Origin: an uncultured Bacilli bacterium
Lineage (GTDB): Bacteria > Bacillota_I > Bacilli_A > RF39 > UBA660
Reading direction: 5' to 3'
DNA length: 39,009 nucleotides
Assembly: GCA_947625395.1 (NCBI GenBank)
Contig: CANQOD010000001.1
Span: 1 to 39,009, forward strand
Positions within the stretch are counted from its first letter, which is position 1. Every line of letters starts with the position of its first letter. Under the pieces are notes generated by a model, which saw nothing but the letters and a program-made list of their open reading frames with translations, searched no databases and was not told the origin of the DNA. The position numbers were made by a program, and so were the translations under genes. Shown in pieces: positions 4,529 through 36,292 of the stretch.

Positions 4529-4538
4529 AGGTGATAAA

Positions 4539-5385: not shown

Positions 5386-5414
5386 TTGATTGGAAAGAGA
5401 ATGTATGATATAAT
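5386..5414 (+). promoter_or_regulatory. Sigma-A type promoter for the ABC exporter / large membrane protein operon
   Basis: -35 TTGATT (5386-5391), 17-nt spacer, extended -10 TGaTATAAT (5406-5414). SD GAGGTG precedes the ATG at 5466. Confidence 0.6.
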
Positions 5415-5465: not shown

Positions 5466-6212
5466 ATGAAAAAACAAAAAGAAAACTTGCCAGCGATTAA
5501 AGTATCCCATGTAACCAAAACATTTAATGTCTATTATGATAAAGCCAATACTTTAAAAGAACGCATCATCTTTTTGAATCGAAATCAAAAAGAAGTGCGA
5601 AAAGTCCTTAAAGATATTGATTTGGAAATTCAAAAAGGGGAAACAGTGGCGTTAATTGGTGTCAATGGAAGTGGAAAGTCTACCTTATTAAAATTAATGA
5701 CAAAAATTATCTATCCAAACAGTGGAACCATTAAAATTAATGGTAAATTGACTTCCTTACTTGAATTGGGAGCTGGTTTTCATCCGGATTTTTCAGGAAG
5801 AGAAAACATTTATTTTAATGCTTCTATTTTTGGATTGACGAAAACACAAATCGACCAACGTTTAGATGATATTATTGCTTTTTCTGAGTTGGGAGATTTT
5901 ATCGACAATCCAATTCGAACATATTCCTCAGGAATGTATATGCGTCTTGCGTTTGCAGTGGCCATCAATGTGGATGCAGATATTCTCTTAATTGATGAAG
6001 TCTTAGCGGTTGGTGACCAACATTTTCAAGAGAAATGCTTAAAGAAAATGAAAGAGTTAAAAAAAGAGGGCAAGACGATGGTGTTTGTCAGTCATTCCAT
6101 GGAATCTGTCAAATTTTTATGTGATAGGGCTGTTTGGCTTTACAATGGCCAAATTCGTGAAGATGGTCCGACAGAACAAGTAGTCAAAGATTATCTAAAG
6201 GAATGTTCGTAA
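5466..6212 (+). CDS. Polysaccharide/teichoic-acid type ABC exporter, ATP-binding subunit (TagH/Wzt-like, short form without C-terminal carbohydrate-binding domain)
   Basis: 248 aa. Walker A GVNGSGKST, ABC signature YSSGMYMRLAFA, Walker B ILLIDEVLAVGD, H-loop VSHS. Confidence 0.9.
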   Translation: MKKQKENLPAIKVSHVTKTFNVYYDKANTLKERIIFLNRNQKEVRKVLKDIDLEIQKGETVALIGVNGSGKSTLLKLMTKIIYPNSGTIKINGKLTSLLELGAGFHPDFSGRENIYFNASIFGLTKTQIDQRLDDIIAFSELGDFIDNPIRTYSSGMYMRLAFAVAINVDADILLIDEVLAVGDQHFQEKCLKKMKELKKEGKTMVFVSHSMESVKFLCDRAVWLYNGQIREDGPTEQVVKDYLKECS

Positions 6213-6220
6213 GAGGTGAA

Positions 6221-6997
6221 ATGATGAAATTAGTACAAGAGTTATATCAATATAGAGAATTTTTAAAAACATCTATTCGCAAAGAATTTAGAGGAAAATA
6301 TAAGAAATCATTTTTAGGAGTGCTTTGGTCTTTTATTAATCCCTTGTTACAACTCCTTGTTTATGCCCTTGTTTTTCCTTTTATCATGCGGGTTCAAGTC
6401 GAAAATTATACGATGTTTTTGATTGTAGCTTTAATTCCTTGGACTTTTTTCAATAGTACCGTTTGTCAAAGTACATCTACGATTATTGCTTCTTCTGGGA
6501 TTATTAAAAAAGTGTATTTTCCAAGAGCGATTTTGCCAATTTCAAACGTGACGAGCAATTTCTTAAACTTTTTAATTTCCTGCATCATTATTGTCGTTGC
6601 CTTATTGATTAGTGGGATTGGCATTGGCGCAAGTATTGTCTTTTTACCACTTGTGATGTTCTTACAGTATGTCTTTTCATTGGCCATTTCTTTCATTTTG
6701 TCTTCCATAACGGTCTATATTCGCGATTTGGAATATTTTGTCAATGTTTTGATGATGTTATGGTTCTACTTGACGCCAATTGTCTATGAAGTGAGTATGA
6801 TTCCGGAAAGATTTAGAAATATTTTGAATCTCAATCCAATGGTGCATATTATTACTGCTTATCGGGATATTCTATATTACCAAAAAGCACCGGATTTAAC
6901 CGCTTTGGGAATTCTATTTTTAATTTGCTTCTTTCTTCTTTGGATTGGTTACCATATTTTCCATAAATGTGAGAAGCGTTTTGCAGAAGAATTATAG
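6221..6997 (+). CDS. ABC-2 type exporter permease (TagG/Wzm-like)
   Basis: Contains about six TM segments and an N-terminal amphipathic region YQYREFLKTSIRKEFRGKYKKSFLGVLWSFINPL typical of ABC-2 permeases. The start is chosen at ATG 6221 (or 6224) after SD AGAGG at 6212-6216; the track start 6203 has no spacing to any SD. Confidence 0.85.
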   Translation: MMKLVQELYQYREFLKTSIRKEFRGKYKKSFLGVLWSFINPLLQLLVYALVFPFIMRVQVENYTMFLIVALIPWTFFNSTVCQSTSTIIASSGIIKKVYFPRAILPISNVTSNFLNFLISCIIIVVALLISGIGIGASIVFLPLVMFLQYVFSLAISFILSSITVYIRDLEYFVNVLMMLWFYLTPIVYEVSMIPERFRNILNLNPMVHIITAYRDILYYQKAPDLTALGILFLICFFLLWIGYHIFHKCEKRFAEEL

Positions 6998-7014
6998 TTG
7001 AAATGGGGGATAGA

Positions 7015-9921
7015 ATGAAAGATTTTGTGCATGCGAAAAAATTGCGAATTTTATGTTTATTGCTATTAGGAGGATGCATTGCTTTTTGCTGTTGTTTTTT
7101 CTTTTTGAGTCAAAATCCGGAAACATTTCATGATATGATTGTTGAATTTGTTGCTTACACAAAGACAAATAAATCCGTGGAAATCAACTGCTTTTGGTTC
7201 GTGACAGGAGTGGGCGTTCTTCTTTTAGTACTTGATTTTCTAAGAGATTTGTATCGGAAGAAAAAAGAAGAAAAGGAGAAAGTAGTGACGCCTTTTTTTG
7301 CTGTTGTGGTAACGATGATAACGGTGTTAGTGGGACATTACATCTTTACGATGACAACGCTTCCATTTGTGTTACTTGCTTTATGTTTGCTACTCCTTGC
7401 CCATAAGTGCATTCCTGGCAAAGAAGCGCATACACTGGTTGCTTTTTGTTTTCTTTTTTATGCTTTCTATGGTGTCTTTGTTTTCATCAATCATTTTGTT
7501 GAAGTTGCTGTTCAAAAAGAGTTGCTTTTCATTGCTTCTTTTTTAGTTACATTATGGTGTGTTTGTAAAGAAGAGAAAAAGGATATTTTAAGAAAACTCA
7601 TTTTAGTTGCCCAAATTCCGATTTCTTTGCCATTTCTTAATTTTCTTGTCGACAAGTATCTTTATCAAGGCAAGATGATGACACTTCCTCAGCCTTTCTT
7701 TGCTGCCCTTGTTTTTTGGAGTATACTCCTTGGGGTGATGGTCTTTAATCTCGTTCACTTGTTCCGTACTTGGAAAAAGAAAGATGCAACTTTAGACCAG
7801 CTTATCGCACTTCCATCCATTTTGACTATTTTTATGCTCAATTCTATTCAGGGAACGATTTATGGTACCGCAAATCTGATTACGATTCCTGATTATCATC
7901 ATCCAGGAGAAAATATTCAAGCGTTCCATCAGATATTTTTAAAAGGACAAACGCCGTATCAAACTTATATTCCTGTTTCAGGACTCTTTTCTGTCGTTAT
8001 CGGTTTTCTCTTGGAGCTCTGTGGAGGGGTGATGACGCATTATAAAAGCGCACTTGTTCTATTTGAATTGTTTTTCTCATTGATTACCATTTGGCTTGTA
8101 AGCCGACATCTTTCTAAAACAGAGAGCCTTTTGTTCTCGATGCTTGTCTTACTTGTCAGTTATAATCGCATCAGTCTTATCATGGCCATTCTTTTGATTC
8201 TGTTGTTCCCTCGACTGATTGCCAATAAGAATTGTTGGTTAAAAGTTTGGTTATGGCTCTGCTTTTTAGGAGGACTTTATTATCCGCTCTATGGCGCCGC
8301 AGTTTTATTAGGAACGCTTCCTTTTGGCATTGGCCAGTTCATTGGTTATTTAAAGTCTACAGATTTTAAAAAGCAACGCAAGCAAGTTTCCTTTTATGTT
8401 TGGTGGGGAGTTACATTGCTTCCGATTGTCCTTTGTATTCCCTTGCTCATTCGCATGTTAAAGCATACCATGACCTATTCTGGTCAATCGCTTTTAGCAG
8501 ACAGTATTTCTGTCTTTACGCAAGAATTGCCTGAGGGATTCTTACAAATTTTAGGACCAGGCAAATTGCTTGCTCAATTGTGCTATTGGTGTCTTCGTTA
8601 TGTCATTCCGGCTGGTGCGATATGGTTATTTACGTTGCTGTTATTAGGCTTGTTCTCTTCTTGTAAGAGTAAAAAAGATGTTTGGCAAAAAATCCAAACA
8701 CCAGCATTCTTATTACTCCCCGCAGGTCTATTCATTTTAGCAGTTTCTTATACGTTTACATTGATGCGGGCAGATTATCAGATGCTGTTATCACGAACAG
8801 GCAATATTATCACCATTGTCTGTGGGATGATTTATCTCATTATTGTCTTTAAAAACTATCAGAAAAGTTTATTTTATCCGATTACCTTTGGCGTTGTTTT
8901 AAGTATTTTAATCCAACTTGGTTCGTCACCGCTGACAATGGAAAAATATCAACTTGTTCATCATTACAATGTTCCAAGTGACTATACTTATGTAGAAGAG
9001 GGGGATTTACCAAGAATTGGAACTGGTTTTGTTTCTACAAAAGTATCTTATTTAACTTCGAAAGATGGGGAAGAATATACCATCGAAAATATGAAGCAAT
9101 TACACGATACTGCCCAAAAATTATTGCAGTATGACCCTGATTTAAGTTTTGTTCTTTATGGGCCACTTGCCCTTTATTATATTTTAGATTTGAAAACAGT
9201 TTCGCAACCCTCCATTGCCGCAATCAAATCGAAAAAAACATCAGAGGAATTTATTGAAGTGGTGAAACGGGAAAAGCCTGTGATTGGAAGATATCTTGCC
9301 GATACGCTTGCCAATTATTATATTTATCATTATTTAATGACGACCGATGATTATCAATATTCGAGTGAATATGATGTCTTCTTACCAACGGAATTGTATC
9401 AAAAGATTGATGGACAAAAAGAGGGAGAATGGAAGTGTGCCTCTCAGATAAAAACGAATGATTTAGGAAAAGCACCTGCTTCTTTAGGAGAATCTTATCA
9501 AACATTGAAGAAAAATTTTAAAGAAGTGAAGATGCAATATCAAGTCAAGACAAATCGGGATGAAAAAACAGCATCTTATACGTATCAATTTACCACTCCT
9601 ATTCAAAAAGATGAGGTCGATTTTCTCTATCTAGAAGTGGATACGAATCGAGATTTTTACAATGAAAAATCGCTGCGCAATCGTTTACAAATTGACCTGA
9701 CCAATATGGACATTCCAGTGACTGTTTCCTGGGGTGGAGAAGAAAAAATAACGGCGCTATTGAGTCGTGGACGCCTCCTCATTGGCTTAGGAGTTGATTG
9801 TGACTGGTTACTTCAAAGTCATTCATCCTTACAAATTCAAATCGAGGGAATAGAACCACAATATCAAGTGGCGATAAAGAAAATGCAATTTTTGAAATTA
9901 AAAGAAGCAAAAGGGAAATAA
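7015..9921 (+). CDS. Large polytopic membrane protein with ~320-aa C-terminal non-membrane domain, paralog A (unknown family; possibly GT-C-like)
   Basis: 968 aa counted from the M at 7015, which aligns with the paralog B start MKxFVHxKK. It has many hydrophobic helices through roughly residue 640, then a hydrophilic C-terminal domain. It starts within ~20 nt of the permease stop. It is collinear with 9931-12810. Confidence 0.8.
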   Translation: MKDFVHAKKLRILCLLLLGGCIAFCCCFFFLSQNPETFHDMIVEFVAYTKTNKSVEINCFWFVTGVGVLLLVLDFLRDLYRKKKEEKEKVVTPFFAVVVTMITVLVGHYIFTMTTLPFVLLALCLLLLAHKCIPGKEAHTLVAFCFLFYAFYGVFVFINHFVEVAVQKELLFIASFLVTLWCVCKEEKKDILRKLILVAQIPISLPFLNFLVDKYLYQGKMMTLPQPFFAALVFWSILLGVMVFNLVHLFRTWKKKDATLDQLIALPSILTIFMLNSIQGTIYGTANLITIPDYHHPGENIQAFHQIFLKGQTPYQTYIPVSGLFSVVIGFLLELCGGVMTHYKSALVLFELFFSLITIWLVSRHLSKTESLLFSMLVLLVSYNRISLIMAILLILLFPRLIANKNCWLKVWLWLCFLGGLYYPLYGAAVLLGTLPFGIGQFIGYLKSTDFKKQRKQVSFYVWWGVTLLPIVLCIPLLIRMLKHTMTYSGQSLLADSISVFTQELPEGFLQILGPGKLLAQLCYWCLRYVIPAGAIWLFTLLLLGLFSSCKSKKDVWQKIQTPAFLLLPAGLFILAVSYTFTLMRADYQMLLSRTGNIITIVCGMIYLIIVFKNYQKSLFYPITFGVVLSILIQLGSSPLTMEKYQLVHHYNVPSDYTYVEEGDLPRIGTGFVSTKVSYLTSKDGEEYTIENMKQLHDTAQKLLQYDPDLSFVLYGPLALYYILDLKTVSQPSIAAIKSKKTSEEFIEVVKREKPVIGRYLADTLANYYIYHYLMTTDDYQYSSEYDVFLPTELYQKIDGQKEGEWKCASQIKTNDLGKAPASLGESYQTLKKNFKEVKMQYQVKTNRDEKTASYTYQFTTPIQKDEVDFLYLEVDTNRDFYNEKSLRNRLQIDLTNMDIPVTVSWGGEEKITALLSRGRLLIGLGVDCDWLLQSHSSLQIQIEGIEPQYQVAIKKMQFLKLKEAKGK

Positions 9922-9930
9922 GGAGGCCTT

Positions 9931-12810
9931 ATGAAAAGTTTTGTACACTTAAAAAAAATAAAAATATTGGGTGTTTTATTTGCCTTTGGGATGCTAGGAA
10001 TGGCTCTTTGTTTTTTACTTGCAGGCCAAACACCAGAAACGTTTCATGATATCATTGCTGAAGCCTTAGTGATTTTAAAAAATAATAAATCTATGGAGCT
10101 CAATTGCTTTTGGATAATTGTCTTCGTTGGCAGTTTCGTTTTACTGATAGATATGATTCGAACAAGGAAAAAGAGAAGAGAAGAGAAACAACCAGTTTTT
10201 TCTTCTTTCTCGCTGGTTCTTTTAGCACTTGCAACTGGAATGGTTCTCTATTATTTCTTGACGATGCATGTTCCTCTTTTCCTTTTAACCACTTTCTTTC
10301 TTTTATTACTATCGCACCACTTTCTGAAAGGAAAAGAAGCAAAAATTTGTCTGATAAATTGTTTTTTATTTTATTTCTTCTATGGTGGACTGAGCTTGCT
10401 TAATTTTTCTTTTCATGCGCTTTTTATTTCGAAAGAATTCTTATTGCTCCTTTCTTTCCTTATTACTTTATGTCTTTTGAAATTAGAGCAAAAGAAGCCT
10501 ATTTTAGAGAATTGTATTCTCTTGAGTCAAACTACAATTCCACTCATTCTTTTGAATTATTTAGTGGATTGTTATCAATATCAAGGGCAAGAAATCCATG
10601 TTCCACTTCCATTTTTTGCAAAGCTTTTCTTTGGAACCTTACTGCTTAGTTTTCTTGTTTACAATTTTTATTATCTTTATAAAAACTGGAGTCGAAAAGA
10701 AAAAAATATCAATCAACTTCTGTCATTTGCAACCATCATCACAATTTTTATCATCCATTCGGTTTCCATGAATACCAGTGCGATTTTACCAACTGATTTA
10801 CATCACACAGGTGAAAATATTCAGGCTTTTCATCAAATTTTTAGTAAAGGACAGATTCCTTATCAAAACTACATTCCTGTATCGGGTCTTTATTCCGTCT
10901 GCGTTGGTTTTATTTTAGAACTTTGTGGTGGCGTTATGATGCATTATAATGTTGCGGTTGCGATTTATACAACGATTTTTGCCATTCTTACCATTGTTTT
11001 AATTCACTGTCATTTAGACAAAAAAGCAACTTTATTATTGAGTCTATTGTTTCTTTTTGTAAACTATAACCGCGTTTATCTCATTTTAATCTCATTGCTG
11101 ATTTTATTATTACCTAAGCTACGAGCAAAAAAGAATTTGTGGTTAAAGGTTTGGATATGGTTATGCTTTTTAGGAGGACTTTATTATCCCGTTTATGGCG
11201 TGTCAGTTTTACTTGGAACTTTGCCATTTGCCCTTTATCAAATGATTAGTTTCATTCGTTCTAAAGATGGAAAAAGCAAGTTACATACTTTCCGGTTTTA
11301 TCTCGAATGGTTTGTTGTGCTTCTACCAATCTTCTTGGCAGTTCCTATCTTGTTGCACTTACTCAAACATCTTTTAGTCTACTCTTCACAATCCTTATTG
11401 GCAGAGGGTGCGTCTGTTTTTGCCCAAGAAGTGCCTGAGGGATTATTCCAAATTTTTGGTGGAGGACAATTTCTTGCCAAATTAGTCTATTATTGTTTAC
11501 GTTATATGATTCCTGCTTTAGCGATTTGGATTTTTGTTCTCTTACTCTTACAGTTTTTTCAAGATTGCAAGCACAAGAAAGATGTTTTTAAAATTTTTGC
11601 TCATCCGAAATTTTTCTTAGTTGTTTCAGGACTTCTCCTTTTATTAGTAGGGTATCATTTTACCCTTTTACGTGCTGATTCGGGACGATTATTATCACGA
11701 ACTGGCTATTTAATTGAAATTGTTTGTGGCATTTTGTTTTTCATGATTACAGTTCGATATGAGCGTCCGAATCCTTTCTCAGCCATTGTCCTTGGAATAA
11801 TGGTGGCCATCTTGGCTGTACTGGGTGATTCGCCTATTACATTTCCAAATTATACGCTTCAAGCCCATTATACGATTGAAGAGGACTATCAGTTGATTGA
11901 AAATAGTCCACTTCCAAGACTGGGAACTGGCTTTGTTTTGAAAGAAGATGCCTACTTTACCGTGTTATCCAAGAAAATTACCTTTCAAGAATTAAATACC
12001 TTATCTAACAATGCCCAAAAATTGCTTCAATATAATCCGGATTTAAAATTTGTTTTATATGGACCTTTGGCAGCTTACTATATTTTAGATTTAACAACAA
12101 CTGCACAGCCATCCATTTATGCGATTAAGAGTCAAGAAGCAAGCGAAGAGTTTTTAACGATAATTCAAAAAGAAAAGCCTGTTGTGGGTACGTTTATTGC
12201 GAATGCAGAACAGAGCTATTATATTTATCATTATTTAATGACAACGGATGATTATCTTTATGCAGAAGAATATGAGGCTTTTTTACCTAGAGAACTTTAT
12301 CAGAAGATTTATGGAAATACGGTAGGGAGTGATAAACGTCTTGCCAACTTCACCATTGCTGATTTAGGTGTTTCATCGTCTGTGTTTGGTAATTCTTATG
12401 AAGCTTTAAAAACAAGATTTACGAAAGTCCAACCAACAATGCAGTCTATTTGTACGCGACAAGATAAATTGTATACATGTACCTATACGTTTTCAAAAGC
12501 ACTTGCCAAAGAAGAGGTTGATTTTCTCTATTTGGAAGTTGATACCAATCGTGATTTGTACAATGAAAGGGCATTTGCAAATCTTTTGCGCATTGACTTT
12601 ACCAATTCAGATATCCCTGTGAAAGTCACGTGGGGGGGGGAAGAAATAAAATGTTTATTATTCCAAGGAAAACTTTTGATTGCACTTGGAGTGAATAGTG
12701 ATTGGTTGTTATCAGATAAAGAGAAGATTTCAATTCAAATCGAGGGAATCGAACCGCAATATCAAGTGGCGATTTCCAAAATCGAATTTTTAAAACTGAA
12801 AACAGCATAG
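9931..12810 (+). CDS. Large polytopic membrane protein, paralog B of 7015-9921 (unknown family)
   Basis: 959 aa with SD AGGAGG before the ATG at 9931. Blocks shared with paralog A include PETFHD, HH[PT]GENIQAFHQIF.KGQ.PYQ.YIPVSGL, LKVW.WLCFLGGLYYP.YG, YYIYHYLMTTDDY, EVDFLYLEVDTNRD and IQIEGIEPQYQVAI. Confidence 0.8.
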   Translation: MKSFVHLKKIKILGVLFAFGMLGMALCFLLAGQTPETFHDIIAEALVILKNNKSMELNCFWIIVFVGSFVLLIDMIRTRKKRREEKQPVFSSFSLVLLALATGMVLYYFLTMHVPLFLLTTFFLLLLSHHFLKGKEAKICLINCFLFYFFYGGLSLLNFSFHALFISKEFLLLLSFLITLCLLKLEQKKPILENCILLSQTTIPLILLNYLVDCYQYQGQEIHVPLPFFAKLFFGTLLLSFLVYNFYYLYKNWSRKEKNINQLLSFATIITIFIIHSVSMNTSAILPTDLHHTGENIQAFHQIFSKGQIPYQNYIPVSGLYSVCVGFILELCGGVMMHYNVAVAIYTTIFAILTIVLIHCHLDKKATLLLSLLFLFVNYNRVYLILISLLILLLPKLRAKKNLWLKVWIWLCFLGGLYYPVYGVSVLLGTLPFALYQMISFIRSKDGKSKLHTFRFYLEWFVVLLPIFLAVPILLHLLKHLLVYSSQSLLAEGASVFAQEVPEGLFQIFGGGQFLAKLVYYCLRYMIPALAIWIFVLLLLQFFQDCKHKKDVFKIFAHPKFFLVVSGLLLLLVGYHFTLLRADSGRLLSRTGYLIEIVCGILFFMITVRYERPNPFSAIVLGIMVAILAVLGDSPITFPNYTLQAHYTIEEDYQLIENSPLPRLGTGFVLKEDAYFTVLSKKITFQELNTLSNNAQKLLQYNPDLKFVLYGPLAAYYILDLTTTAQPSIYAIKSQEASEEFLTIIQKEKPVVGTFIANAEQSYYIYHYLMTTDDYLYAEEYEAFLPRELYQKIYGNTVGSDKRLANFTIADLGVSSSVFGNSYEALKTRFTKVQPTMQSICTRQDKLYTCTYTFSKALAKEEVDFLYLEVDTNRDLYNERAFANLLRIDFTNSDIPVKVTWGGEEIKCLLFQGKLLIALGVNSDWLLSDKEKISIQIEGIEPQYQVAISKIEFLKLKTA
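12632..12640 (+). repeat. G9 homopolymer inside the paralog B coding sequence (candidate slipped-strand contingency tract)
   Basis: Read directly: acg tgg ggg ggg gaa gaa, encoding T-W-G-G-E-E. Paralog A encodes the same residues as tgg ggt gga gaa gaa (9730-9744) with no long run. Confidence 0.9.
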
Positions 12811-12919
12811 AACGTCAAATTTTGTCAAGTGATTATAAAAAGAGAAAAGATATCAAAAATCTATCTCTTTTTCTTTTTATTTATTGTATAATAAAAGTAA
12901 GAATGTGGAGGGAAGATGT

Positions 12920-15900
12920 ATGAAAAATGCGAAAAAAATCATCCTATTTATCATCATAATGAGTTTCTTTTATCTTGCTCCAAAAAGCGTTTTTGCTTAT
13001 TCGAAATCAGACTATGCAGGAAGAGGACTTTGTGGGAATTTTGAAGTTGCTGGATTTCATAGTGATGGACAAATTGTGAAAGTTTCTTGTGCGAATACAT
13101 TCCAAGAAGCCAAAAATTATATGCAGTCAAATGGGGCAGACGATTTGGCTATTTTAACGAAAATAAATGGTGTGACAACAGTGATAGATGCCAATGTGGC
13201 TTTGGTAGAATTGCATCAAAATCCCATCCAGGATACGTTTGATATTTATACCCAGCCAACCCTTTCTTTTGCACATACTTACATGTCTACATCTTACTCC
13301 GGTGATGATGCAGTTTTATTAGATAGTTCTACTTCGCCCATGGGATATGTTGCGAAAATTTTAGTCAATGACCGAACGGGTTGGGTTTTAGAAGAGAATT
13401 ATGAGATTGTTCCAATTACTTGGGTCAAATCAAGTAGTTATTATCAAATCTCCAACGATTCTATCTATCACCACTATGTTTCCGATATGCATGCTTCGAA
13501 AGAGGGGACTTATGGAACGACGATTGGTCCAAAACCTACGATGCTTAGTAATGGCAAATATTATAGTTATGATGGACACTATTTTTATACGGATTTAACA
13601 ACTATGATTAAAGATAATAGAGCCGGTAATCACAATCATGCTGTCAATAAAAATGAAGCTTATTATAATTATTACATGTATTTATCCAATCACACGAAAT
13701 CCAATTATTCCAGTGTGAACATTGATGAATATGTAAGAGATAACATTGGAACTGCCGGTGATGTTTATGGCATGACAGCTTATAGTTTTACTTCAAGACT
13801 TTATGGTAAGGGGGCGTTCTTCTATTATGCCCAAGAAAAATATGGCGTGAATGCACTTTTAGCATTCAGTTTAAGTCGAAATGAAACAGGCAATGGAAAG
13901 AGTAACTTAGCCGTCAATAAAAACAATGGGTTTGGTTTAAACGCAGTCGATTCAAATCCTTATGCGAATGCCAACCGTTATGCAAACTTTGCAAGCAGTA
14001 TTTTAGGATTCGCAGAAGATTGGGTTACCTATGGCTTTGTTGATGCGGAGAATTGGCGTTATTATGGGCCACAATTTGGAAATAAATTAAGTGGAATGAA
14101 TGTAAAATATGCTTCCGATGTTTATTGGAGCGAAAAAATGGCCTCTAATTATTATTCTTTTGACAAAGCAAAAGGAATGCAAGATTATAATTATTATCAA
14201 TTAGGGGTGACAACCGATAAAATCGATGCGAGAAAAGCACCCGCTCTTGGCAACAATGTTGTCTATGAATATCCGGAAGCAGAAGATGCTGTTGTGATTA
14301 TCGGAGAAGTACAAGGAGAGAATGTAGGCGGTAGTACAACCTGGTATAAGGTTATGAGTGATATCAATATTGATAACCAGTTCAACCGCATTACTTCAGG
14401 TCCTTATAACTGGAATGCATTTGTTTATGTTCCAGCTGCTTATATTAAAAAAATCAACACTGCAAAAAAAGGTTATGTATCTCCTAATTCCGCAGCAAGA
14501 TTCCCTGACAGTGAATATACGTATAAATTATTGATTGAAAATGGCGTTGTGACTCCACAAGTTGCTCTTTCAACAAGAGATGCAAACTTCTATCGTGACC
14601 CCTCTTTAACCTCTTTAAGAGGACAAGTGATGAAAAAGGACCGCTTTGTCGTTGTTTATGCGATAGCTTATGATAAAAATGGAGCTCCTGTTTCTTATTT
14701 AGTCACATCCGATTATATTGCCGACCAAAAAGAATGGGTGCGGGCGGATAGTTTACAATTTGTAAAGAGTACCTATGGAAGAGTCAGTGTTTCAGCCCTT
14801 TCTAATAACAATAATCCTTATGTAAAAGTTTATAAAGAAAAAAGTACTTCTAGTGAAGAAATTAGTGGTCAATATAACTATTCGATTGTTCCTGTCTTCC
14901 GTCAAGAGTTTGTCGGCAATCAAGCTTGGTTCCTCGTTCAAGCAGACGTGACGGGGGAGAAGCCAGTGAATGGTTGGGTGCTTGCGGGAACGAGTAATTC
15001 CTCTATTTCACTGGATGTGACCAATGTGCTTAATAATGCTCCTGTGATTTTAGCAGAAAACAAAACGATTGTACAAGGAAGCAAGTGGAATGCCAAAGAG
15101 GGTGTTACAGCGAATGACCAGGAAGATGGTGACCTTACGAGTCGTCTTCAAGTCACCAGTGATGGCGTACAACCAAACGTCGTTGGCACTTATCAAGTCA
15201 CTTATCAAGTGAAAGATAACTATGGTCAAACAGTGACAAAGACAATTACGGTGACTGTCACCCAAAATCAAAAGCCAGTGATTACTGCAGAGAATCGTCG
15301 AATTGAAGTGAACAGCGCTTTTGAACCATTGGATGATGTCAAAGCGATGGACCAAGAAGATGGGGACATTACGGACCGAATTGAAGTGACCCAAAATACA
15401 GTAGAACCATCAAAAACAGGTACTTATCAAGTGACCTATCAAGTCCAAGATAGCTTTCATCAGACAGTGACGAAAACAATCAAAGTCGATGTCGTTGAAG
15501 ACATTGATGCGCCAGTTGAAGAAACAGGCAACTTCTATTTCGAGTATTTAAAAGAAGTAGATGGACAACTAGAGATAAAAGGATACCATGCGATTGATGG
15601 AGTCGTTCCAAAAGAAAAACAAAAAGTGACTTTTGAATTGCTTCTTGAAAATATTCTAACGGGTGAAATTACGAAACAGTCCCTTTCTCAAATCACTGAC
15701 CCTAAAGAGATGAGCGTTAAAGTTTATGCCAAAGACGGAAAAGATTATACGTATTCATGGTTCAAGGGTGCAATTGATATCGATGCTTTAGATGATGGGG
15801 ACTATCGGATGTATATTCAAACAACGATTGATAAAACATACGCAAAAACGCTTGTCAACAACTTGTTCTTTATGCCACAAGTGACCATGTATCAAGCAGA

Positions 15901-18281: not shown

Positions 18282-18707
18282 ATGTCAGAAAAAATCATAA
18301 AACTTATCAAACAAGCTTTCCATTTTTTTGCTATTTCCGGTGTAGGATGGATTGTCGATATGTGTATCTATACGATTTTATCAAAATGGATACCGGTCAC
18401 AATAGCCAATATCATTAGTTCAACGACAGCAGTTACCTATGTGTACACTGTTTCAACGAAAAAGATATTTGAAAATAAAAGCAATATCAATATTCGAACC
18501 AAATACATTTTCTATATCATTTATCAGATGGCTTTGATTCTATTATCGAGTGTGGTCATTAGTGGTCTTTCTCATCTTTTACTCGTACATTTTCGAAAAG
18601 TTAAATTCATCACTAAATATGCGAAGATATGTGCTAAAATATTGATAACACCATTTACAATGGTGATGAATTTTCTTTTCATGAAGATATTAATTGAAAA
18701 AATTTAA
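18282..18707 (+). CDS. GtrA-family small membrane protein (putative polyprenyl-phosphate-sugar flippase)
   Basis: 141 aa with four TM helices. The N-terminus FHFFAISGVGWIVDMCIYTIL is typical of GtrA-like proteins, and the gene sits next to a GT2 gene. Confidence 0.75.
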   Translation: MSEKIIKLIKQAFHFFAISGVGWIVDMCIYTILSKWIPVTIANIISSTTAVTYVYTVSTKKIFENKSNINIRTKYIFYIIYQMALILLSSVVISGLSHLLLVHFRKVKFITKYAKICAKILITPFTMVMNFLFMKILIEKI

Positions 18708-18719
18708 GGAGTGTGACAT

Positions 18720-19514
18720 ATGGAGAAAATAATGGTATTTATACCCATGTATAATTGTGAAAAGCAAGTGACAAGAGTGCTAGAACAATTCGATAAGCAA
18801 GTTTGTAAGTATATCCAAGAAATTGTTGTCATCAACAATCGCAGTACTGATAACGGAGAAGAGAAAGTGCGTGCAGTCATCAAGGAGGGAAAAATACCTA
18901 CTCAGATAACTTTGCTAAGAAACGAAGAAAATTATGGGCTTGGTGGTTCTCATAAAGTTGCTTTTAATTATGCCCTTGAAAATGATTATGATTATGTGAT
19001 TGTTTTACATGGGGATGATCAGGGAAGTATTCGAGATGTTTTACCATACATCAAAAGCAAAGAATATCAAAAATATGATTGCATGTTAGGGGCTCGTTTT
19101 ATGAAAGGGTCAAAAATTGATGGATATTCTAAATTAAGAATTTTTGGAAACAAAGTATTCAATACTTTATTTTCCCTTGTTCTTCATGAAAAAGTGTATG
19201 ATTTAGGTTCTGGACTTAATATGTATAAAATGGAATCATTAAAGTCAAAGTACTATCTTCAATTGCCTGATACGCTTTATTTTAATGATGTTATGATTCT
19301 AATGCAAAAATATCGCAACATGAATGTAAAGTTTTTTCCAATCAGTTGGAGAGAAAAAGATCAAGTATCGAATAATAAATTAATGTCGTTTTCAATGAGT
19401 TTATTACAAATGTTGCGAAAGTATATTTTTTCTAAGAAAAAGTATCTCAATAGTGATATGAGAACAAAAATCATTGATGAATACAAGGCTGAAATAATTG
19501 AAAGGAGTAAATAA
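18720..19514 (+). CDS. Family 2 glycosyltransferase (DPM1/polyprenyl-phosphate GT-like catalytic domain, no C-terminal TM helices)
   Basis: 264 aa. SD AAGGAG lies 6 nt before the ATG. Motifs are MVFIPMYNCEKQV, VVINNRSTDNGEEK and VLHGDDQGS. Confidence 0.75.
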   Translation: MEKIMVFIPMYNCEKQVTRVLEQFDKQVCKYIQEIVVINNRSTDNGEEKVRAVIKEGKIPTQITLLRNEENYGLGGSHKVAFNYALENDYDYVIVLHGDDQGSIRDVLPYIKSKEYQKYDCMLGARFMKGSKIDGYSKLRIFGNKVFNTLFSLVLHEKVYDLGSGLNMYKMESLKSKYYLQLPDTLYFNDVMILMQKYRNMNVKFFPISWREKDQVSNNKLMSFSMSLLQMLRKYIFSKKKYLNSDMRTKIIDEYKAEIIERSK

Positions 19515-19515
19515 A

Positions 19516-20538
19516 ATGAAAATATTAATTACAGGAGCTGCAGGATTTATTGGGTCCCAATTGGCTCATAAACTTTATCAAGAGGGACATGAACTGATTT
19601 TGATTGATAATTTTTCTTATGGAAAGTGGGATAATTTAGAATTTGAAGATCACAGTTTTAAAGACGAAATTATCAAGATGGATATTCGTGATAAAGAGGG
19701 AATAGCAACCTTATTAAAAGCAGGAGATGTAGATTATATTTACAATATTGCTGGAATTGCTCCTCTTCCGGATTGTCAGACAGATCCAGTTGAAGCAATT
19801 TCAGTCAATACAGTTGGATTGGTGAACTTACTTGAAAATGCTAGAAAATATGGCGTTAAAAAGGTGATTCAAGCCTCTACCAATGCAATGTATGAAAATG
19901 AAACAGAATTTCCAACGAAAGAAGACCATTTTAAAGTACCTACTCTCATCTATCCAAATACAAAGTACTGTGCTGAAAGATTTGCCGAATCATTTGCAAA
20001 AACATATGGAATGAATATTACTTGTTTACGTTTTGCTAATGTTTATGGACCTCATATTGATTGCTTGCGTAAACAACCTCCATTTGTTGCCTATATGATT
20101 AGAGAACTTTATTATAATCGAACACCCATATTTCATTCTACAGGAGAGCAAAGAAGAGACTATATCTATGTAGATGATTTAATTGATTTGGCCATTAAAG
20201 TTCAACAAGGTGAAGGATTTGACTGTGTCAATGTTTCTTCGAATACAAATTATTCCGTTAATGAAATGTATCAAATTGCTGAGAAGATTATGCACAAAGA
20301 CATTCCAGCAAAGTATGCTGATAATACACATTATTGGGAAAAATATCCAGCTCTTTATGAGGGAAAATATGCAATTAAAGAGGAAATATTAGAACATGAA
20401 GTTAATAAATATTCTCTTTGTGATAATACATATGCCAAAGAAAAATATGGATGGGAACCCCAAATTTCGATGGAAGAAGGTCTTCGTAGAGTGATTGATG
20501 CAGAATGTGAAATGTTAACTAAAATAGGTGAAAAATAA
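19516..20538 (+). CDS. NAD(P)-dependent sugar epimerase/dehydratase (extended SDR)
   Basis: SD AAAGGAG (19501-19507) precedes the ATG at 19516. Rossmann motif ILITGAAGFIGS and catalytic YPNTKYCAE (YxxxK) are present. Confidence 0.85.
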   Translation: MKILITGAAGFIGSQLAHKLYQEGHELILIDNFSYGKWDNLEFEDHSFKDEIIKMDIRDKEGIATLLKAGDVDYIYNIAGIAPLPDCQTDPVEAISVNTVGLVNLLENARKYGVKKVIQASTNAMYENETEFPTKEDHFKVPTLIYPNTKYCAERFAESFAKTYGMNITCLRFANVYGPHIDCLRKQPPFVAYMIRELYYNRTPIFHSTGEQRRDYIYVDDLIDLAIKVQQGEGFDCVNVSSNTNYSVNEMYQIAEKIMHKDIPAKYADNTHYWEKYPALYEGKYAIKEEILEHEVNKYSLCDNTYAKEKYGWEPQISMEEGLRRVIDAECEMLTKIGEK

Positions 20539-20539
20539 A

Positions 20540-21274
20540 ATGAATCAAGTACATTTAATTATGCCAATGGGTGGCGTAGGTTCTCGCTTTAAAAACATGG
20601 GCTATCAGCTTCCAAAACCTTTGATTGAAATTCATGGAAAACCCTTTTTCTATTGGGCAACGCAATCCATTACCAAGTTTTTAGAAGTCGATATCACGTT
20701 TGTTGTATTACAAGAACATGTTTTGAAGTTTCAAATTGACCAAGAAATTAAAAAGTATTATCCAAATGCAAAGATTGTCATTATCAAAGAAGTATTAAAC
20801 GGAGCTGTTTTAACTTGTTTAGAGGGAATCAAAGAGATACATGACCAAAATCCAATTATCTTTAATGACTGTGACCATATGTTTATGGCAAAGGATTTTT
20901 ACGAGGCCGTGAAACAACAAACAGAATTAGATGGATTACTGTTGTCTTTTCCATCGCAAGAAAACAAATTCAGCTATTTAGAAGTGAATCAAGACAATCT
21001 TGTTGTCCGGACCGTTGAAAAAGAAGTGATTAGTCATCATGCTATTTGTGGCGTGTACTATTTTAAAAATAAAGATATTTTTGAAAAGGTAGTACAAACT
21101 TATTTAAAACAATGCAATTATCAAGAATATTTTATTAGTGGCGTTTATAATACTTTGATATCTTCCGGTGGCAGAGTAGGCTATTATGATGTTGATATGC
21201 ATGTTTCTTTTGGAACTCCGGAAGAATATGAAGAAGCTGTCAAAAGTCGTCATTTTGAGGATTTGATAGGATGA
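20540..21274 (+). CDS. Sugar-phosphate (or phospho-alcohol) nucleotidyltransferase
   Basis: The N-terminal motif IMPMGGVGSRFKNMGYQLPKPLIEIHGKPF is a GxGxR...K signature of the NTP_transferase fold. The ATG at 20540 directly follows the upstream TAA. Confidence 0.75.
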   Translation: MNQVHLIMPMGGVGSRFKNMGYQLPKPLIEIHGKPFFYWATQSITKFLEVDITFVVLQEHVLKFQIDQEIKKYYPNAKIVIIKEVLNGAVLTCLEGIKEIHDQNPIIFNDCDHMFMAKDFYEAVKQQTELDGLLLSFPSQENKFSYLEVNQDNLVVRTVEKEVISHHAICGVYYFKNKDIFEKVVQTYLKQCNYQEYFISGVYNTLISSGGRVGYYDVDMHVSFGTPEEYEEAVKSRHFEDLIG

Positions 21275-23187
21275 AATTTGTTCTTTTTATTATCTCCATT
21301 ATCACACTTATATTAGGACATTATTTTAAAGTCTATCGGCAACAACAGCTTATTGATATTTATGAAAAGTCAGATGAAAAAGTATTATTGCGTGCGCTTG
21401 CTTCTGCTTATTTTATTAATTCGATTGTTCCTTTTAAGGTCGGGGATTTATTTCGAGCATGGTATTCCGGAAAAAGAATGAAAAATGGCATTTCCTTTTC
21501 ACTTTCAACTGTGATTATCGATAGAATATTGGATATTATTTTTGTCGGATTCTTGTTTTGTTTCATCGGCATCATTGGTATTGAACGCGAAATGATAGGG
21601 GAGAGTATTCTCTTTTACGGTGTATTAAGCGTTTTATGTCTTTTATCGATTGTCTTTTTCTTCCGTCATAACAAGACCCTTAAAATCATTGTCAAAAAAT
21701 TTGCAGGTATTTTTAATGCGACCATTGAATATGCGATTTTAAAAGGATTTTGGTGTATTATTTCTTCATTTAAAGATATTTTTGAAAATGTCAGTAAGCG
21801 AAAACTCTTGTTGAACACCATTTGCATTTGGACGTTTTATTTACTGTCTTACTTTACGTTTGCCTTATCCATGAAACAATTTGGCTATTCTGTCAGTGTA
21901 GTCCATTTAATGCTGGGCTTCTTTTCTAAAAATACACTCGATGCCCCAACTTTTCATTTAACGCAAACGTTGACAGGGACTTTTTCATTCTATTTTCTCT
22001 TGTATCAGTGCATTCCACTAATTTCTTTATTTGTTATCTCTTTTCTTCCATATCGTATTTATCGAAGAAAACAGCCTTATGTTGATAATAAACATCTCGA
22101 ATTATTGCCTCATGTCAATCGCCAAGATAAACTGCTTTTTTTGGAAGCCTACTTTAGCGCTGAAAGCCGTAAATACTTTCAAAATTATTTAAAAATCAAC
22201 AGAGATATTTGTATTTTACAAGACTATTCAGCAGGAAGTAATGCCACAACCATGTTATGTACAGACAATACAAACACGTTTTTTCGAAAGTATTCCTTTG
22301 GCAAAGACAGTGAAAAGTTATATCAACAAATAGAATGGATTGAAGCCAATCAGAGTCATCTTTCTTTACCACAAGTTTTGAACGTCAAACATGGAGATGG
22401 TTATTGTAGTTACGATATGCCTTATATGAGTAGTTCCATTGTCTTCTTTAATTATATTCATTCACAACCATTACAAAAAAGTTGGCATATGTTAAAACAA
22501 GTTTTAGAAGATTTAGAAAAGCATTTATATCAAGTGACACAGTATGAGAAGCAAGGACAATCTCTCGAAGAATATCTTGATACCAAAGTGATAAAAAACA
22601 TTGAAAAAATTGAAAGTGGTTCTTATATCAAACCATTACTTAAATATGATTACTTATATATTAATGGCAAAAAATACAAGAATCTAAAGCTTTTAAAAAA
22701 GTATCTTCAAAAAGATTGCTTAATGAATATCTTCAAAACAGATACTTATAGTACAATTCATGGAGATTTAACGATTGAAAACATTATCTGTAATCTAGAA
22801 AAAAATGACTATTATATCATTGACCCCAATACAGGAAATCTACATGAAAGTGCGAATTTAGACTATGCCAAATTATTACAGTCCTTACATGGAAATTATG
22901 AGTTTTTCATGAATACCAAAAGTGTAGATGTCTATCAAAATCATATCAATTATTTGTTTACATCTTCCCATAATTATAAAGAAATGTATGAAAACTATCG
23001 TCAATACTTAGAAAATACGTTTTCTTATGAAAAGGTAAGAAGTATTTACTTCCATGAAATTGTGCATTGGTTACGATTGATGCCTTATAAAATAGAAAAG
23101 AACAAAGAAAGGTCCGTTCTTTTCTATGCAGGAATGTTGATTGTCATGAATGAAATTATAGAAAAATATGGGGAGGGGATTTTATGA
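21271..23187 (+). CDS. Fusion protein: N-terminal flippase-like / LPG-synthase-TM-type membrane domain plus C-terminal choline/aminoglycoside-kinase-like phosphotransferase domain
   Basis: 638 aa. Residues ~1-270 form about 8 TM helices containing PFKVGDLFRAWY. The C-terminal domain has a Brenner-type motif IHGDLTIENII (H497, D499, N504) followed by YYIIDPN (D518). The start shows ATGA coupling with the upstream gene. Confidence 0.7.
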   Translation: MKFVLFIISIITLILGHYFKVYRQQQLIDIYEKSDEKVLLRALASAYFINSIVPFKVGDLFRAWYSGKRMKNGISFSLSTVIIDRILDIIFVGFLFCFIGIIGIEREMIGESILFYGVLSVLCLLSIVFFFRHNKTLKIIVKKFAGIFNATIEYAILKGFWCIISSFKDIFENVSKRKLLLNTICIWTFYLLSYFTFALSMKQFGYSVSVVHLMLGFFSKNTLDAPTFHLTQTLTGTFSFYFLLYQCIPLISLFVISFLPYRIYRRKQPYVDNKHLELLPHVNRQDKLLFLEAYFSAESRKYFQNYLKINRDICILQDYSAGSNATTMLCTDNTNTFFRKYSFGKDSEKLYQQIEWIEANQSHLSLPQVLNVKHGDGYCSYDMPYMSSSIVFFNYIHSQPLQKSWHMLKQVLEDLEKHLYQVTQYEKQGQSLEEYLDTKVIKNIEKIESGSYIKPLLKYDYLYINGKKYKNLKLLKKYLQKDCLMNIFKTDTYSTIHGDLTIENIICNLEKNDYYIIDPNTGNLHESANLDYAKLLQSLHGNYEFFMNTKSVDVYQNHINYLFTSSHNYKEMYENYRQYLENTFSYEKVRSIYFHEIVHWLRLMPYKIEKNKERSVLFYAGMLIVMNEIIEKYGEGIL

Positions 23188-23735
23188 GTAAATTAGCTTT
23201 ATTTGATTTAGATGGAACCTTATTTAATACAGAGGATGTCAACTATCTTGCTTATAGTAAAGCCTTAAAAGAAGTTGGAAAAGAAATGGATTATCAGTAT
23301 TATTGTCAATATTGTAACGGAAGAAAATATACAGAATTTCTTCCCCAAATCCTTAGTAATGAACAAGAAATCCAACAAGTGCATCGCAAGAAAAAAGAGC
23401 TTTATGCTACATTTTTAGATGCGGCGAAAATCAATACCCATTTATTTCAATTGATTCAATCACTTCCAAAGGAATATAAAATCGTCATTGTCACAACGGC
23501 TTCCAAAAAGAATACCATGGATATCTTAGAACACTTTCAAGTCACACAACTCTTTGACGATATGATTACCCAAGAAGACATTGTGCATACCAAACCCAAT
23601 CCGGAGGGATTTTTAAAAGCGATGGAGAAATACCAGGCAAGCAAAGAAGAAACAATGATTTTCGAAGATTCTGAAGTAGGTATTCTTGCAGCCAAGAAAA
23701 CAGGAGCTACAGTGTTTAAAATAGAACAGTTCTAA
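23184..23735 (+). CDS. HAD-superfamily hydrolase, subfamily IA (beta-phosphoglucomutase/phosphatase-like)
   Basis: Motif I is LFDLDGTLFNT, motif II VIVTTAS, motif III K in HTKPNPEG, motif IV FEDSEVG. Confidence 0.85.
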   Translation: MSKLALFDLDGTLFNTEDVNYLAYSKALKEVGKEMDYQYYCQYCNGRKYTEFLPQILSNEQEIQQVHRKKKELYATFLDAAKINTHLFQLIQSLPKEYKIVIVTTASKKNTMDILEHFQVTQLFDDMITQEDIVHTKPNPEGFLKAMEKYQASKEETMIFEDSEVGILAAKKTGATVFKIEQF

Positions 23736-23802: not shown

Positions 23803-23888
23803 AAAAAAAGAAGAATCAAAAAGAAATGGTGGATGTAAGAAAAAAGATAGCCTATCGCTTACAAAAACTGTTTACGAGGAGTATAAAG

Positions 23889-24818: not shown

Positions 24819-24826
24819 GAGGGCAT

Positions 24827-30507: not shown

Positions 30508-30589
30508 AAAAGAGCCTCCTTTTTATTCTAGTATTTTATCTTAAACTATTATATAATATTTCTAGAAGATAGACAAGAGGTGAAGTGAA

Positions 30590-32528: not shown

Positions 32529-32552
32529 CTATACAGTTCCTTTTGTTATAAT
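32524..32552 (+). promoter_or_regulatory. Candidate promoter for the ylbL-like gene
   Basis: Extended -10 TGtTATAAT (32544-32552) with a weak -35 TTCATC (32524-32529) at 17-nt spacing. Confidence 0.45.
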
Positions 32553-32583
32553 AGAATAGAAAAAAGAAAGAAGGTCGTTATGT

Positions 32584-33600: not shown

Positions 33601-33626
33601 AATCTTGCAAAGACCACTTTCTTTGC

Positions 33627-33655
33627 TTGCGAAAGAAGAAAAATTTTAATACAAT
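33627..33655 (+). promoter_or_regulatory. Candidate promoter for mutS
   Basis: -35 TTGCGA (33627-33632), 17-nt spacer, -10 TACAAT (33650-33655). Confidence 0.45.
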
Positions 33656-33685
33656 AGAAAAGTGAAGAAAAGAGAAGTATGAAGT

Positions 33686-36241: not shown

Positions 36242-36292
36242 GTTTGTCTTTGCAAGAAAGTTAAAATTTGATATGATAAGAAAGGTGAGAGC

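Follow-up and report, generated by a model that had tools for sequence, protein, structure and literature searches.

The DNA analysed here is a stretch of 39,009 nucleotides from an uncultured Bacilli bacterium (GTDB lineage RF39; UBA660; contig CANQOD010000001.1 of assembly GCA_947625395.1), and by the window we mean this whole stretch. Two adjacent genes in it, A and B, encode large polytopic membrane proteins and stand directly behind a glycan exporter of the ATP-binding cassette (ABC) type. We suggest, with a confidence somewhat better than even, that A and B are diverged copies of an uncharacterised polytopic membrane enzyme family which fills the slot of the outer-face lipid-linked-sugar transferase. 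We place them in this slot because of the cassette position, the topology, the invariant acidic and His residues at the outer face and a C-terminal domain resembling carbohydrate-binding modules (CBMs). The genomic context is the best functional clue.

7015..9921, + strand: paralog A, 968 aa, about 17 transmembrane (TM) helices (residues 1-634) and an extracytoplasmic C-terminal domain
9931..12810, + strand: paralog B, 959 aa, architecture as in A

For gene A, an alternative ATG at 7003 was judged less likely than that at 7015, because GGGGGA lies 4 nt upstream of the latter and its MKDFVH aligns with the MKSFVH of B. Both reading frames translate without interruption. The two proteins align end to end in BLASTP with 491 identities in 966 positions (51%), 68% positives and 8 gap positions, which makes the paralogy far beyond chance. 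An earlier reading of the DNA by a model that saw only the letters (the sequence-only reading) had described full-length collinear paralogs sharing about half of their residues, and both this description and the motif blocks it had located are correct (HH[PT]GEN at residue 295 of A, nt 7897, and at residue 291 of B, nt 10801). All of the residues that are invariant in the family are retained in both proteins, and of 95 columns at least 85% conserved in the other 46 aligned members, A retains 76 and B 77. Many of the deviations are common to A and B and are therefore older than the duplication. Judged from their sequences, both gene copies look functional. The side-by-side tandem arrangement is specific to this contig when compared with 80 other loci of the family.

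At the nucleotide level A and B are 58% identical overall, with a proportion of synonymous differences (pS) of 0.705, a synonymous distance (dS) of about 2.1, which is saturated, and a nonsynonymous distance (dN) of 0.45 by the Nei-Gojobori method. The same codon is used at 55% of the residues conserved between them, against 48% expected from codon usage alone, and permutation shows no clustering of the identical codons, either in the fullest stretch of 12 consecutive ones (11 identical, p 0.67) or in the longest run (8, p 0.78). The sequence-only reading had reported a match of 36 of 38 nt between 9838-9875 and 12736-12773 and had seen in it a hint of gene conversion. The match was reproduced and falls in the conserved IQIEGIEPQYQVAI block, but gene conversion between A and B was rejected on the pS and the absence of clustering. 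The near-identical stretch is attributed to the conserved peptide together with codon bias, and the divergence of the two sequences indicates that the duplication is old.

The genes of the exporter and the site in front of them are as follows.

5386..5414, + strand: promoter-like site TTGATT-17-TATAAT with TG (extended -10), consensus match only
5466..6212, + strand: ABC ATPase of the glycan-export type (TagH / Wzt-RfbE-like), 248 aa, E 1.4e-59 (Wzt/RfbE), 1.5e-71 (TagH-type models) and 1.1e-59
6203..6997, + strand: ABC-2 permease, Wzm/RfbD- and KpsM-like, overlapping the ATPase gene by 10 nt

The promoter-like site lies within a gap of 99 nt before the ATPase gene, the only sizeable upstream gap, and the ATPase is without a C-terminal carbohydrate-binding domain. 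The permease gene is separated from A by 5-17 nt and A from B by 9 nt, with an AAGGAGG ribosome-binding site ahead of B, and nothing promoter-like or terminator-like was found in either gap by consensus scans. Within genes such sites occur at background frequency (79 against 66±8 for promoter-like and 15 against 11.8±2.9 for terminator-like sites). After B comes an AT-rich spacer of 73 nt with a TGtATAAT -10-like element before the next gene. On the spacing and the consensus scans, the ATPase, the permease, A and B probably form one four-gene transcript starting at the 5386-5414 site, in agreement with the coupling to the exporter operon proposed earlier from these gaps. Further upstream, 461-5366 encodes a rhamnosyltransferase-like GT2, a 681-aa GT2, a GT4 and another GT2, and the run of same-strand open reading frames (ORFs) spans 461 to 27674. 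An LCP-family protein was not found among the window ORFs scanned, as the same reading had stated for an LCP ligase.

A and B match no Pfam-A or NCBIfam model even at E<=10. A family alignment of 48 members was built from A, B and 46 relatives, and no recurrent Pfam family appeared when all of them were scanned. Searches of PDB chains by phmmer and by profile hmmsearch gave nothing relevant, and the YfhO model (PF09586) and the Wzy_C and O-antigen_lig models for O-antigen ligases and Wzy-type polymerases (PF04932, PF13425, GT121-135) matched neither A and B nor their relatives. Among 5.8 billion clustered proteins, 70 clusters match at E<=1e-3, the nearest being 31% identical; all 70 are without a precomputed Pfam domain, and the few that are named by their source are called 'hypothetical protein'. 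An exhaustive profile search of 1.84 billion representatives at 50% identity returned 947 at E<=1e-3, 408 of them at E<=1e-30, and almost all have about 950-1,000 aa. The A/B family is without placement in any curated library searched, so that the claim of an unplaceable family holds against Pfam, NCBIfam and PDB sequence searches, none of which gave a confident match to a characterised family. Shorter database members were considered as a stand-alone core and rejected; their starts near residue 264-288 fall inside a TM helix, and they look like truncated gene calls.

Relatives are encoded on 104 stretches of GTDB species genomes, of which 80 loci were kept for a survey of gene contexts. These loci are overwhelmingly from Lachnospiraceae metagenome-assembled genomes (MAGs) of gut and rumen, with single loci labelled Monoglobus, Hungatella, Clostridiaceae, Selenomonas, Melainabacteria and Elusimicrobium, and the taxon labels of some MAG loci may reflect wrong binning. 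Thirteen assemblies contribute 2-3 loci each. The invariant residues, in the numbering of A, are D40, K53, E56, Y215, D293, H296, E299, S322, G323, Y383, R385, Y422, Y423, P424, G427, P436, G669, G671 and F672.

For the survey, ORFs were called in the 80 loci, six neighbours per side were clustered by BLASTP and the cluster representatives were annotated. Four recurrent contexts were found, and they correspond to clades in a neighbour-joining tree of 79 family proteins.

Type I, about 35 loci: a divergent 535-aa polytopic protein without family; on the other side lspA, S8 protease, clpX-like, htrA-like and glmS
Type II, 15-17 loci: the family gene and then six same-strand genes (family gene last in L027 and L047)
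Type III: neighbours tpiA, gpmI and ffh
Type IV: GT2 upstream, M18 aminopeptidase downstream

Types I, III and IV have the look of synteny kept by descent and tell little about function. Type II is the only context found beyond the Lachnospiraceae, with loci in Lachnospiraceae, Monoglobus, Hungatella, Selenomonas, Melainabacteria and Elusimicrobium MAGs. Its six genes encode a GT2 of 265 aa with best matches to AglJ, PpgS and dolichyl-P hexose transferase; a flippase-like protein of PF03706 ('LPG_synthase_TM'); a protein of about 484 aa with an HGDxxxxN...IDP motif of the APH/choline-kinase type; a small HAD protein of the EcbF/BcbF 'capsule biosynthesis phosphatase' family; an HddC/RmlA-like sugar-1-phosphate nucleotidyltransferase; and a GtrA-like protein. 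The cassette GT2 is 53-61% identical across loci, compared with only about 25-31% for the family protein. In the tree, A and B together are the sister group of the Type II clade, and all six cassette functions are present in the window at 18282-23735, 5.5 kb downstream of B.

18282..18707, + strand: GtrA-like small membrane protein, candidate polyprenyl-P-sugar flippase; relatives end the cassette in 8 loci
18720..19514, + strand: GT2, 264 aa, candidate polyprenyl-phosphate sugar synthase; best matches AglJ, dolichyl-P hexose transferase and PpgS
19498..20538, + strand: NAD-dependent NDP-sugar epimerase/dehydratase, a cassette insertion specific to the window
20528..21274, + strand: sugar-1-phosphate nucleotidyltransferase, RmlA-long- and HddC-like, cassette member
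21271..23187, + strand: fusion of a flippase-like TM domain (PF03706 / TIGR00374) with an APH/choline-kinase-like domain, cassette member
23184..23735, + strand: HAD hydrolase of the beta-phosphoglucomutase family, cassette member; EcbF/BcbF-type instead in most other loci

The window cassette is most like the versions of L016 (Monoglobus) and of L062 (45-59% identity), and its GT2 is 53-61% identical to the gene directly after family members in 14 loci. A polyprenyl-phosphate-linked donor for A and B would fit the linkage of their nearest clade to an AglJ/DPMS/PpgS-like GT2 and flippase-like proteins. The role in extracytoplasmic decoration that had been offered earlier as one possibility is the best reading, and it is strengthened by the cassette with its GT2, flippase-like proteins and sugar activation.

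The kinase domain of the fusion protein carries the motif HGDLTIENI...IIDPNTG. The same fusion occurs in L016 and L062, and in at least 10 other loci the two parts are separate adjacent genes; a sugar kinase fused to a putative lipid-sugar flippase is an odd physical coupling. Two unrelated HAD subtypes were observed in the cassettes, the beta-phosphoglucomutase-like one (about 183 aa) with the fused kinase and the EcbF/BcbF one (about 135 aa, e.g. L035:15931-16323) with the separate kinase. In L047, a Selenomonas-labelled MAG, family copies at 2050-4875 and 9280-12417 flank one cassette; since they are each other's closest relatives in the tree, this duplication is independent of that of A and B. 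In a Hungatella-labelled MAG (L025, 6506-17613), an ABC-2 permease, an ATPase 45% identical to that of the window and a glycosyltransferase (DUF4422+GT8) stand in one co-directional row with the family gene and the whole cassette. L025 is the only other locus with an adjacent exporter. A constant association of the family with ABC-2 exporters, on which the sequence-only reading had asked for a neighbourhood survey, was accordingly rejected: 12 of the 80 loci have an ABC ATPase within 10 kb, and only L025 has a Wzm/Wzt-like pair.

These contexts also bear on whether A and B are instead glycan polymerases or ligases acting on polyprenyl-diphosphate-linked glycans (Wzy, WaaL or GT-C-like 'BP-Pol'), for example by linking the chain from the ABC exporter to another polymer or anchoring it to lipid or wall, in place of the LCP ligase not found among the scanned window ORFs. 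Such a role would suit the exporter coupling without an LCP gene among the scanned window ORFs, as well as polytopic proteins with conserved outer-face Arg, His and Tyr (R385, R594, H296, Y422), and polymerase families are notoriously divergent and have been classified only recently (PMC10920833). We nevertheless regard it as quite improbable. Neither A nor B has similarity to O-antigen-ligase or Wzy models, and the window has a separate O-antigen-ligase-like gene at 26514-27674; the partner kept across phyla is a cassette for activating, lipid-loading and flipping a single sugar, not a repeat-unit assembly locus; and the exporter adjoins a family gene in only one of the 80 other loci. Wzy and WaaL are, moreover, much smaller than about 960 aa with a CBM-like domain.

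A further reading keeps the lipid-linked-sugar transferase and changes the acceptor to protein, with surface or membrane proteins being O-glycosylated in a PMT- or Pgf-like manner. The neighbours of many family members are lspA, S8 protease and htrA-like genes for envelope proteins and not glycan loci, the window itself has a PgfS-like GT2 (23826-24818, E 4e-98), and streptococcal GtrB-type/GT-C systems are said to glycosylate Ser/Thr-rich protein regions. The lspA/S8/clpX neighbourhood, however, looks like inherited Lachnospiraceae synteny, A and B are coupled in an operon to a glycan exporter and glycan glycosyltransferases, and their C-terminal domain is CBM-like, so we hold a protein acceptor to be very unlikely.

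The structure of the proteins was addressed by AlphaFold2 (AF2). The model of full-length A (48-sequence alignment) has a pLDDT of 88.9 and a pTM of 0.90, and an independent model of B residues 1-640 has a pLDDT of 89.1 and a pTM of 0.90 and shows the same helix pattern; both models are confident. The topology was derived from DSSP helices, hydropathy and Lys plus Arg counts per loop averaged over the 48 family members, according to the positive-inside rule. The N-terminus is predicted to be inside, followed by about 17 membrane crossings, with the C-terminal domain outside and a helical hairpin at 368-396, probably on the cytoplasmic side. The K/R-rich loops assigned to the inside (79-94, 186-200, 251-267, 446-459, 545-564, 613-621) alternate consistently with K/R-poor, acidic loops assigned to the outside (32-52, 281-341, 488-518). 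The two models thereby agree with the earlier description of a TM region of about 640 aa followed by a large outside C-terminal domain (about 330 aa).

7117..7146, + strand: A residues 35-44, PETFHDMIVE, first outside loop, invariant D40
7891..7986, + strand: A residues 293-324, DYHHPGE...YIPVSGL, outside loop after TM9
8278..8295, + strand: A residues 422-427, YYPLYG, outer-leaflet turn between two TM helices; Y422, Y423, P424 and G427 invariant
8935..9918, + strand: A residues 641-968, extracytoplasmic domain, alpha/beta part and then beta-sandwich

Loops with D40, Y215, DxHHxGE, YYP and HTLTYSSQ..ADG are all predicted to be outside, and the invariant K53 and E56 follow PETFHDMIVE where TM2 begins. 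With few exceptions, the invariant polar residues are located in predicted outside loops or at outer helix ends, and this clustering would fit an active site at the outer face. In the model the loop 293-324 contains two short surface helices and the invariant D293, H296, E299, S322 and G323, and it is our candidate for the catalytic loop. The C-terminal domain consists of an alpha/beta part at about 650-830, with G669, G671 and F672 invariant, and a beta-sandwich at about 835-962. In a Foldseek search with the full-length model of A, the beta-sandwich matched CBM86 (6sgf) with probability 1.00 and accessory domains of GH85 and GH29 with probability 0.84-0.97. The predicted sandwich thus resembles a CBM and would be outside by topology parity.

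The TM domain is less easily placed. With the full-length model of A, Foldseek found no match in PDB at E<=1e-3, and the viral structure library BFVD gave no match. The comparisons of interest were the following.

PglB (5ogl/6gxc/3rce) with the full-length model: probability 0.84-0.91, TM-score up to 0.31 (5ogl 0.91, 0.25/0.31)
Yeast STT3 (8agb) with the full-length model: probability 0.75, TM-score 0.30
EmbB (7bvf) with the full-length model: probability 0.57, TM-score 0.16-0.17
ArnT (5f15) with the TM domain only: probability 0.23, TM-score 0.22/0.25
PglB with the TM domain only: probability 0.14-0.30, TM-score 0.21-0.22
Transporters and receptors with the TM domain only: probability <=0.18, TM-score 0.08-0.20

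The highest TM-scores in both Foldseek runs belong to GT-C enzymes and every TM-score is below 0.5; other membrane proteins mostly score 0.05-0.15, with a few receptor structures up to 0.20. By this measure GT-C enzymes are the closest solved structures, and GT-C membership of A and B is unproven. The sequence-only reading had seen a GT-C-like layout in the two proteins. The layout stood in so far as the invariant acidic residues and the large C-terminal domain are predicted to be outside; the GT-C fold stays unproven, with TM-scores of at most 0.31 and a negative comparison with a GT39 profile. An N-in topology with conserved acidic residues in outside loops (D40 in loop 1; D293 and E299 after TM9) is also not specific to GT-C enzymes.

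A local alignment placed the family motif 'aQPDqHHHGE...Y.eYtPVSGL' after TM9 with 'wQPDETRYAE...YFEKP' after TM1 of ArnT. It was seen with a single ArnT sequence and with a 13-sequence alignment, and not with the 48-sequence core alignment, so that a GT-C core at about 263-640 behind an extra 8-helix domain stays an idea only. The N-terminal 8-helix domain was also compared with GtrA, with the flippase-like PF03706 protein and, for an internal repeat, with the core region, and no homology was found.

It is possible, though unlikely in our estimate, that the TM domain (about 640 residues and 17 helices) is not a diverged GT-C at all and represents a structurally new class of outer-face lipid-linked-sugar transferase, or an 8-helix lipid-carrier-handling domain joined to a minimal transferase core. 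In Lachnospiraceae the family would then belong to the core envelope enzymes, present as 2-3 ancient paralogs in each genome at conserved chromosomal sites, and it would have been mobilised with the cassette into other phyla. The lack of a matching solved enzyme fold for the TM domain would also fit a non-enzymatic role in transport or as a scaffold, for instance a channel or chaperone that passes the polymer on, or a protein that recycles or flips lipid carriers and binds glycan through an extracellular domain. The top matches by E-value are indeed transporters (PPase, MATE, MFS), and about 17 TM helices stand against 8-13 reported for Firmicute GT-C enzymes (PMC8035078). The transporter matches, however, do not exceed a probability of 0.12 and have TM-scores near 0.1, the invariant residues, charged or aromatic, are concentrated in outside loops and not along the TM helices, and the cassette already has two flippase candidates. 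We therefore give little weight to a non-enzymatic role.

The system logic is already known. Multi-component transmembrane glycosylation, in which a GT-A enzyme makes a polyprenyl-P-sugar, a flippase moves it and a polytopic GT-C enzyme acts at the outer face, is established in Firmicutes; the class, which Gram-negatives share, includes GtrA/GtrB/GtrC, CsbB/GtcA/YfhO, GacI-J/GacK/GacL, CsdAB-CflA and ArnC/ArnEF/ArnT, and several validated Firmicute GT-C enzymes are also without a Pfam domain (PMC8035078). By content the window has this set in the GtrA (18282-18707), the GT2 (18720-19514), the flippase-like domain (21271-23187) and A and B, with the activities of the parts inferred, and in 15-17 other loci the set is contiguous. 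As in those systems, a polyprenyl-P-sugar-synthase-like GT2 and small or flippase-like membrane proteins accompany a large polytopic protein with outer-face acidic residues beside glycan genes. Unlike them, A and B match no PMT_2, YfhO, GT39 or other model and have about 17 TM helices instead of 8-13, and the window cassette adds its own kinase, HAD enzyme, nucleotidyltransferase and a PF03706 flippase-like protein beside GtrA. We propose for A and B the role in function of GtrC, ArnT, YfhO, GacL or GT136.

ORF12 (GT136) of Citrobacter youngae O1 decorates an ABC-pathway polysaccharide from outside; it is polytopic with a catalytic Asp near TM1, its C-terminal CBM binds the acceptor, and it was made a new GT family since it has no similarity to existing ones (PMC11127046). 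A and B likewise have no sequence match to GT families, a CBM-like domain and an ABC exporter context, and a C-terminal beta-sandwich of this kind is also present in EmbC and AftD (PMC11127046). ORF12 differs in its 11 TM helices and length of about 650 aa, its clear AlphaFold similarity to GT-C, its pentofuranose donor derived from phosphoribosyl pyrophosphate and its MATE flippase, none of which was found for A and B. With PglB, STT3 and ArnT (GT-C_A fold), A and B share a TM domain followed by a mixed alpha/beta domain on the outside and the best TM-scores; without the 8 N-terminal helices, A (residues about 260-968) is as long as PglB, and the loop that follows TM9 (PD-x-HH-x-GE, two short helices, Y-x-PVSGL) resembles QPDETRYAE...YFEKP of ArnT by eye. 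They are unlike these enzymes in the low TM-scores (at most 0.31), in the TM-only probabilities, in the profile comparison and in the loss of the motif alignment with the deeper alignment. In archaea, PF03706 proteins are predicted flippases of lipid-linked sugars and are neighbours of AglD-like GTs and PMT/STT3-like enzymes (PMC5898192). The triad of AglD-like GT2, UPF0104 (PF03706) and PMT/STT3-like arCOG00563 resembles the cassette in its dolichyl/polyprenyl-P sugar synthase, MprF-type flippase-like protein and polytopic transferase; the archaeal triad is linked with N-glycosylation, and its polytopic member, unlike A and B, can be recognised as PMT/STT3-like (PMC5898192).

The paralogy, the operon-like spacing, the lack of matches to curated families, the predicted topology and the cassette linkage come from the sequence or the models. 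The proposed transferase role may be pictured as follows, where the donor type, the acceptor, the catalytic residues, the co-transcription and two specificities for the two paralogs are what we infer. A polymer would be built on a polyprenyl carrier by the cytoplasmic glycosyltransferases (461-5366) and moved out by the TagH/Wzt-Wzm exporter (5466-6997). One sugar would be activated by the cassette at 18282-23735 (kinase domain, HAD enzyme, nucleotidyltransferase, epimerase), loaded on polyprenyl phosphate by the AglJ/DPMS-like GT2 and flipped by the flippase-like domain and/or GtrA. A and B would transfer it to the exported polymer or another surface acceptor, which may be held by the C-terminal CBM-like domain, and catalysis may use the invariant acidic and His residues of the outer loops (D40/K53/E56, Y215, D293-x-H-H-x-G-E299, YYP). 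Two paralogs could mean two linkages, two sites or two acceptors.

Several observations weigh against A and B as outer-face transferases. About 50 of the 80 loci (types I, III and IV) lie among housekeeping genes with no sugar-activation genes nearby, and no family member has an established donor, acceptor or activity. The first outside loop has only about 21 residues with a 5-residue helix, and the first external loop (EL1) of solved GT-C enzymes is unlike so short a loop. With the TM domain only, Foldseek probabilities are at most 0.30 and all TM-scores are below 0.5. No sequence link to any GT-C family (PMT, PMT_2/GT39, STT3, YfhO, GT83/87, arabinosyltransferases and others) was found in Pfam and NCBIfam (E<=10, 48 members), in PDB profile searches or by hhalign. 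The hhalign comparison of the family with E. coli ArnT and a 10-sequence GT39 alignment gave a probability below 1%, with a shallow profile and no positive control. An ArnT homolog search had yielded only sequences at least 76% identical, and GT39 genes from plasmid records were used instead; the alignment (E. coli, Citrobacter, Providencia, Ralstonia, Cupriavidus with the crystallised ArnT, Acinetobacter, Paracoccus, Pseudomonas) is still shallow.

Other genes of the window and of the related loci were also noted. Directly after B, 12884-16444 encodes a 1,186-aa protein with a glucosaminidase (peptidoglycan hydrolase) and Ig-like domains, for which a separate TG-extended -10-like element lies at about 12884-12892. 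In the interval that separates A and B from the cassette, 16703-18160 encodes a polytopic membrane protein of 485 aa that matches nothing in Pfam or NCBIfam and has no relative in the 80 related loci. Behind the cassette follow a PgfS/ArnC-like GT2 (23826-24818, E 4e-98 and 8e-53), a polytopic protein of about 565-616 aa without family, and an O-antigen-ligase-like protein with a PF13425 match (26514-27674); the region 23826-27674 is a possible second lipid-sugar system. The listed ORF of the polytopic protein overlaps the GT2 by 142 nt, and its real start is for this reason probably near 24827. The regions 29116-31596 and 31584-37953 encode MutS, NusB, XseA, a SepM-like protease, the sporulation membrane protein YlbJ and a type II/IV secretion ATPase together with PilV-like pseudopilins, which indicates an ordinary chromosome and not a mobile element. 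The YlbJ homolog, together with best relatives in Lachnospiraceae, points to a Firmicute that forms spores.

In the related loci, the polytopic protein of about 535 aa with a soluble C-terminal part (L066:4713-6317, - strand) is the divergent neighbour in 34 of 80 loci; it belongs to no Pfam or NCBIfam family, and hhalign found no relation to the A/B family or GT39. DUF6044 proteins of about 480-560 aa lie by family members in a Pseudobutyrivibrio genome (L032:12910-14601 and L032:7759-9387) and, as one additional gene between the family gene and the cassette GT2, in L010. This 535-aa neighbour, the window proteins at 16703, 24677 and 26514 and the DUF6044 proteins were rejected as relatives of A and B, and the first four also as relatives of GT39.

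Lachnospiraceae are dominant gut commensals, and very little is known of how they build their surface glycans. The A/B family comprises at least 400 clusters at 50% identity, often with several copies per genome, and has no Pfam or NCBIfam annotation; no library searched places the protein family. It is unusual in its combination of about 17 TM helices with a two-part outside domain, in its wide spread within an important gut clade and in its distinctive self-contained cassette. If its members are outer-face transferases of a portable seven-gene cassette, they would found a new glycosyltransferase family and would account for some of the differences between strains in surface antigens and phage receptors. 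The cassette would also be a compact transferable module for glycoengineering, covering sugar activation, lipid loading, flipping and transfer. The tandem pair and the independent duplication in the Selenomonas MAG provide a natural setting in which to test how specificity for acceptor or linkage diverges under a constant donor pathway.

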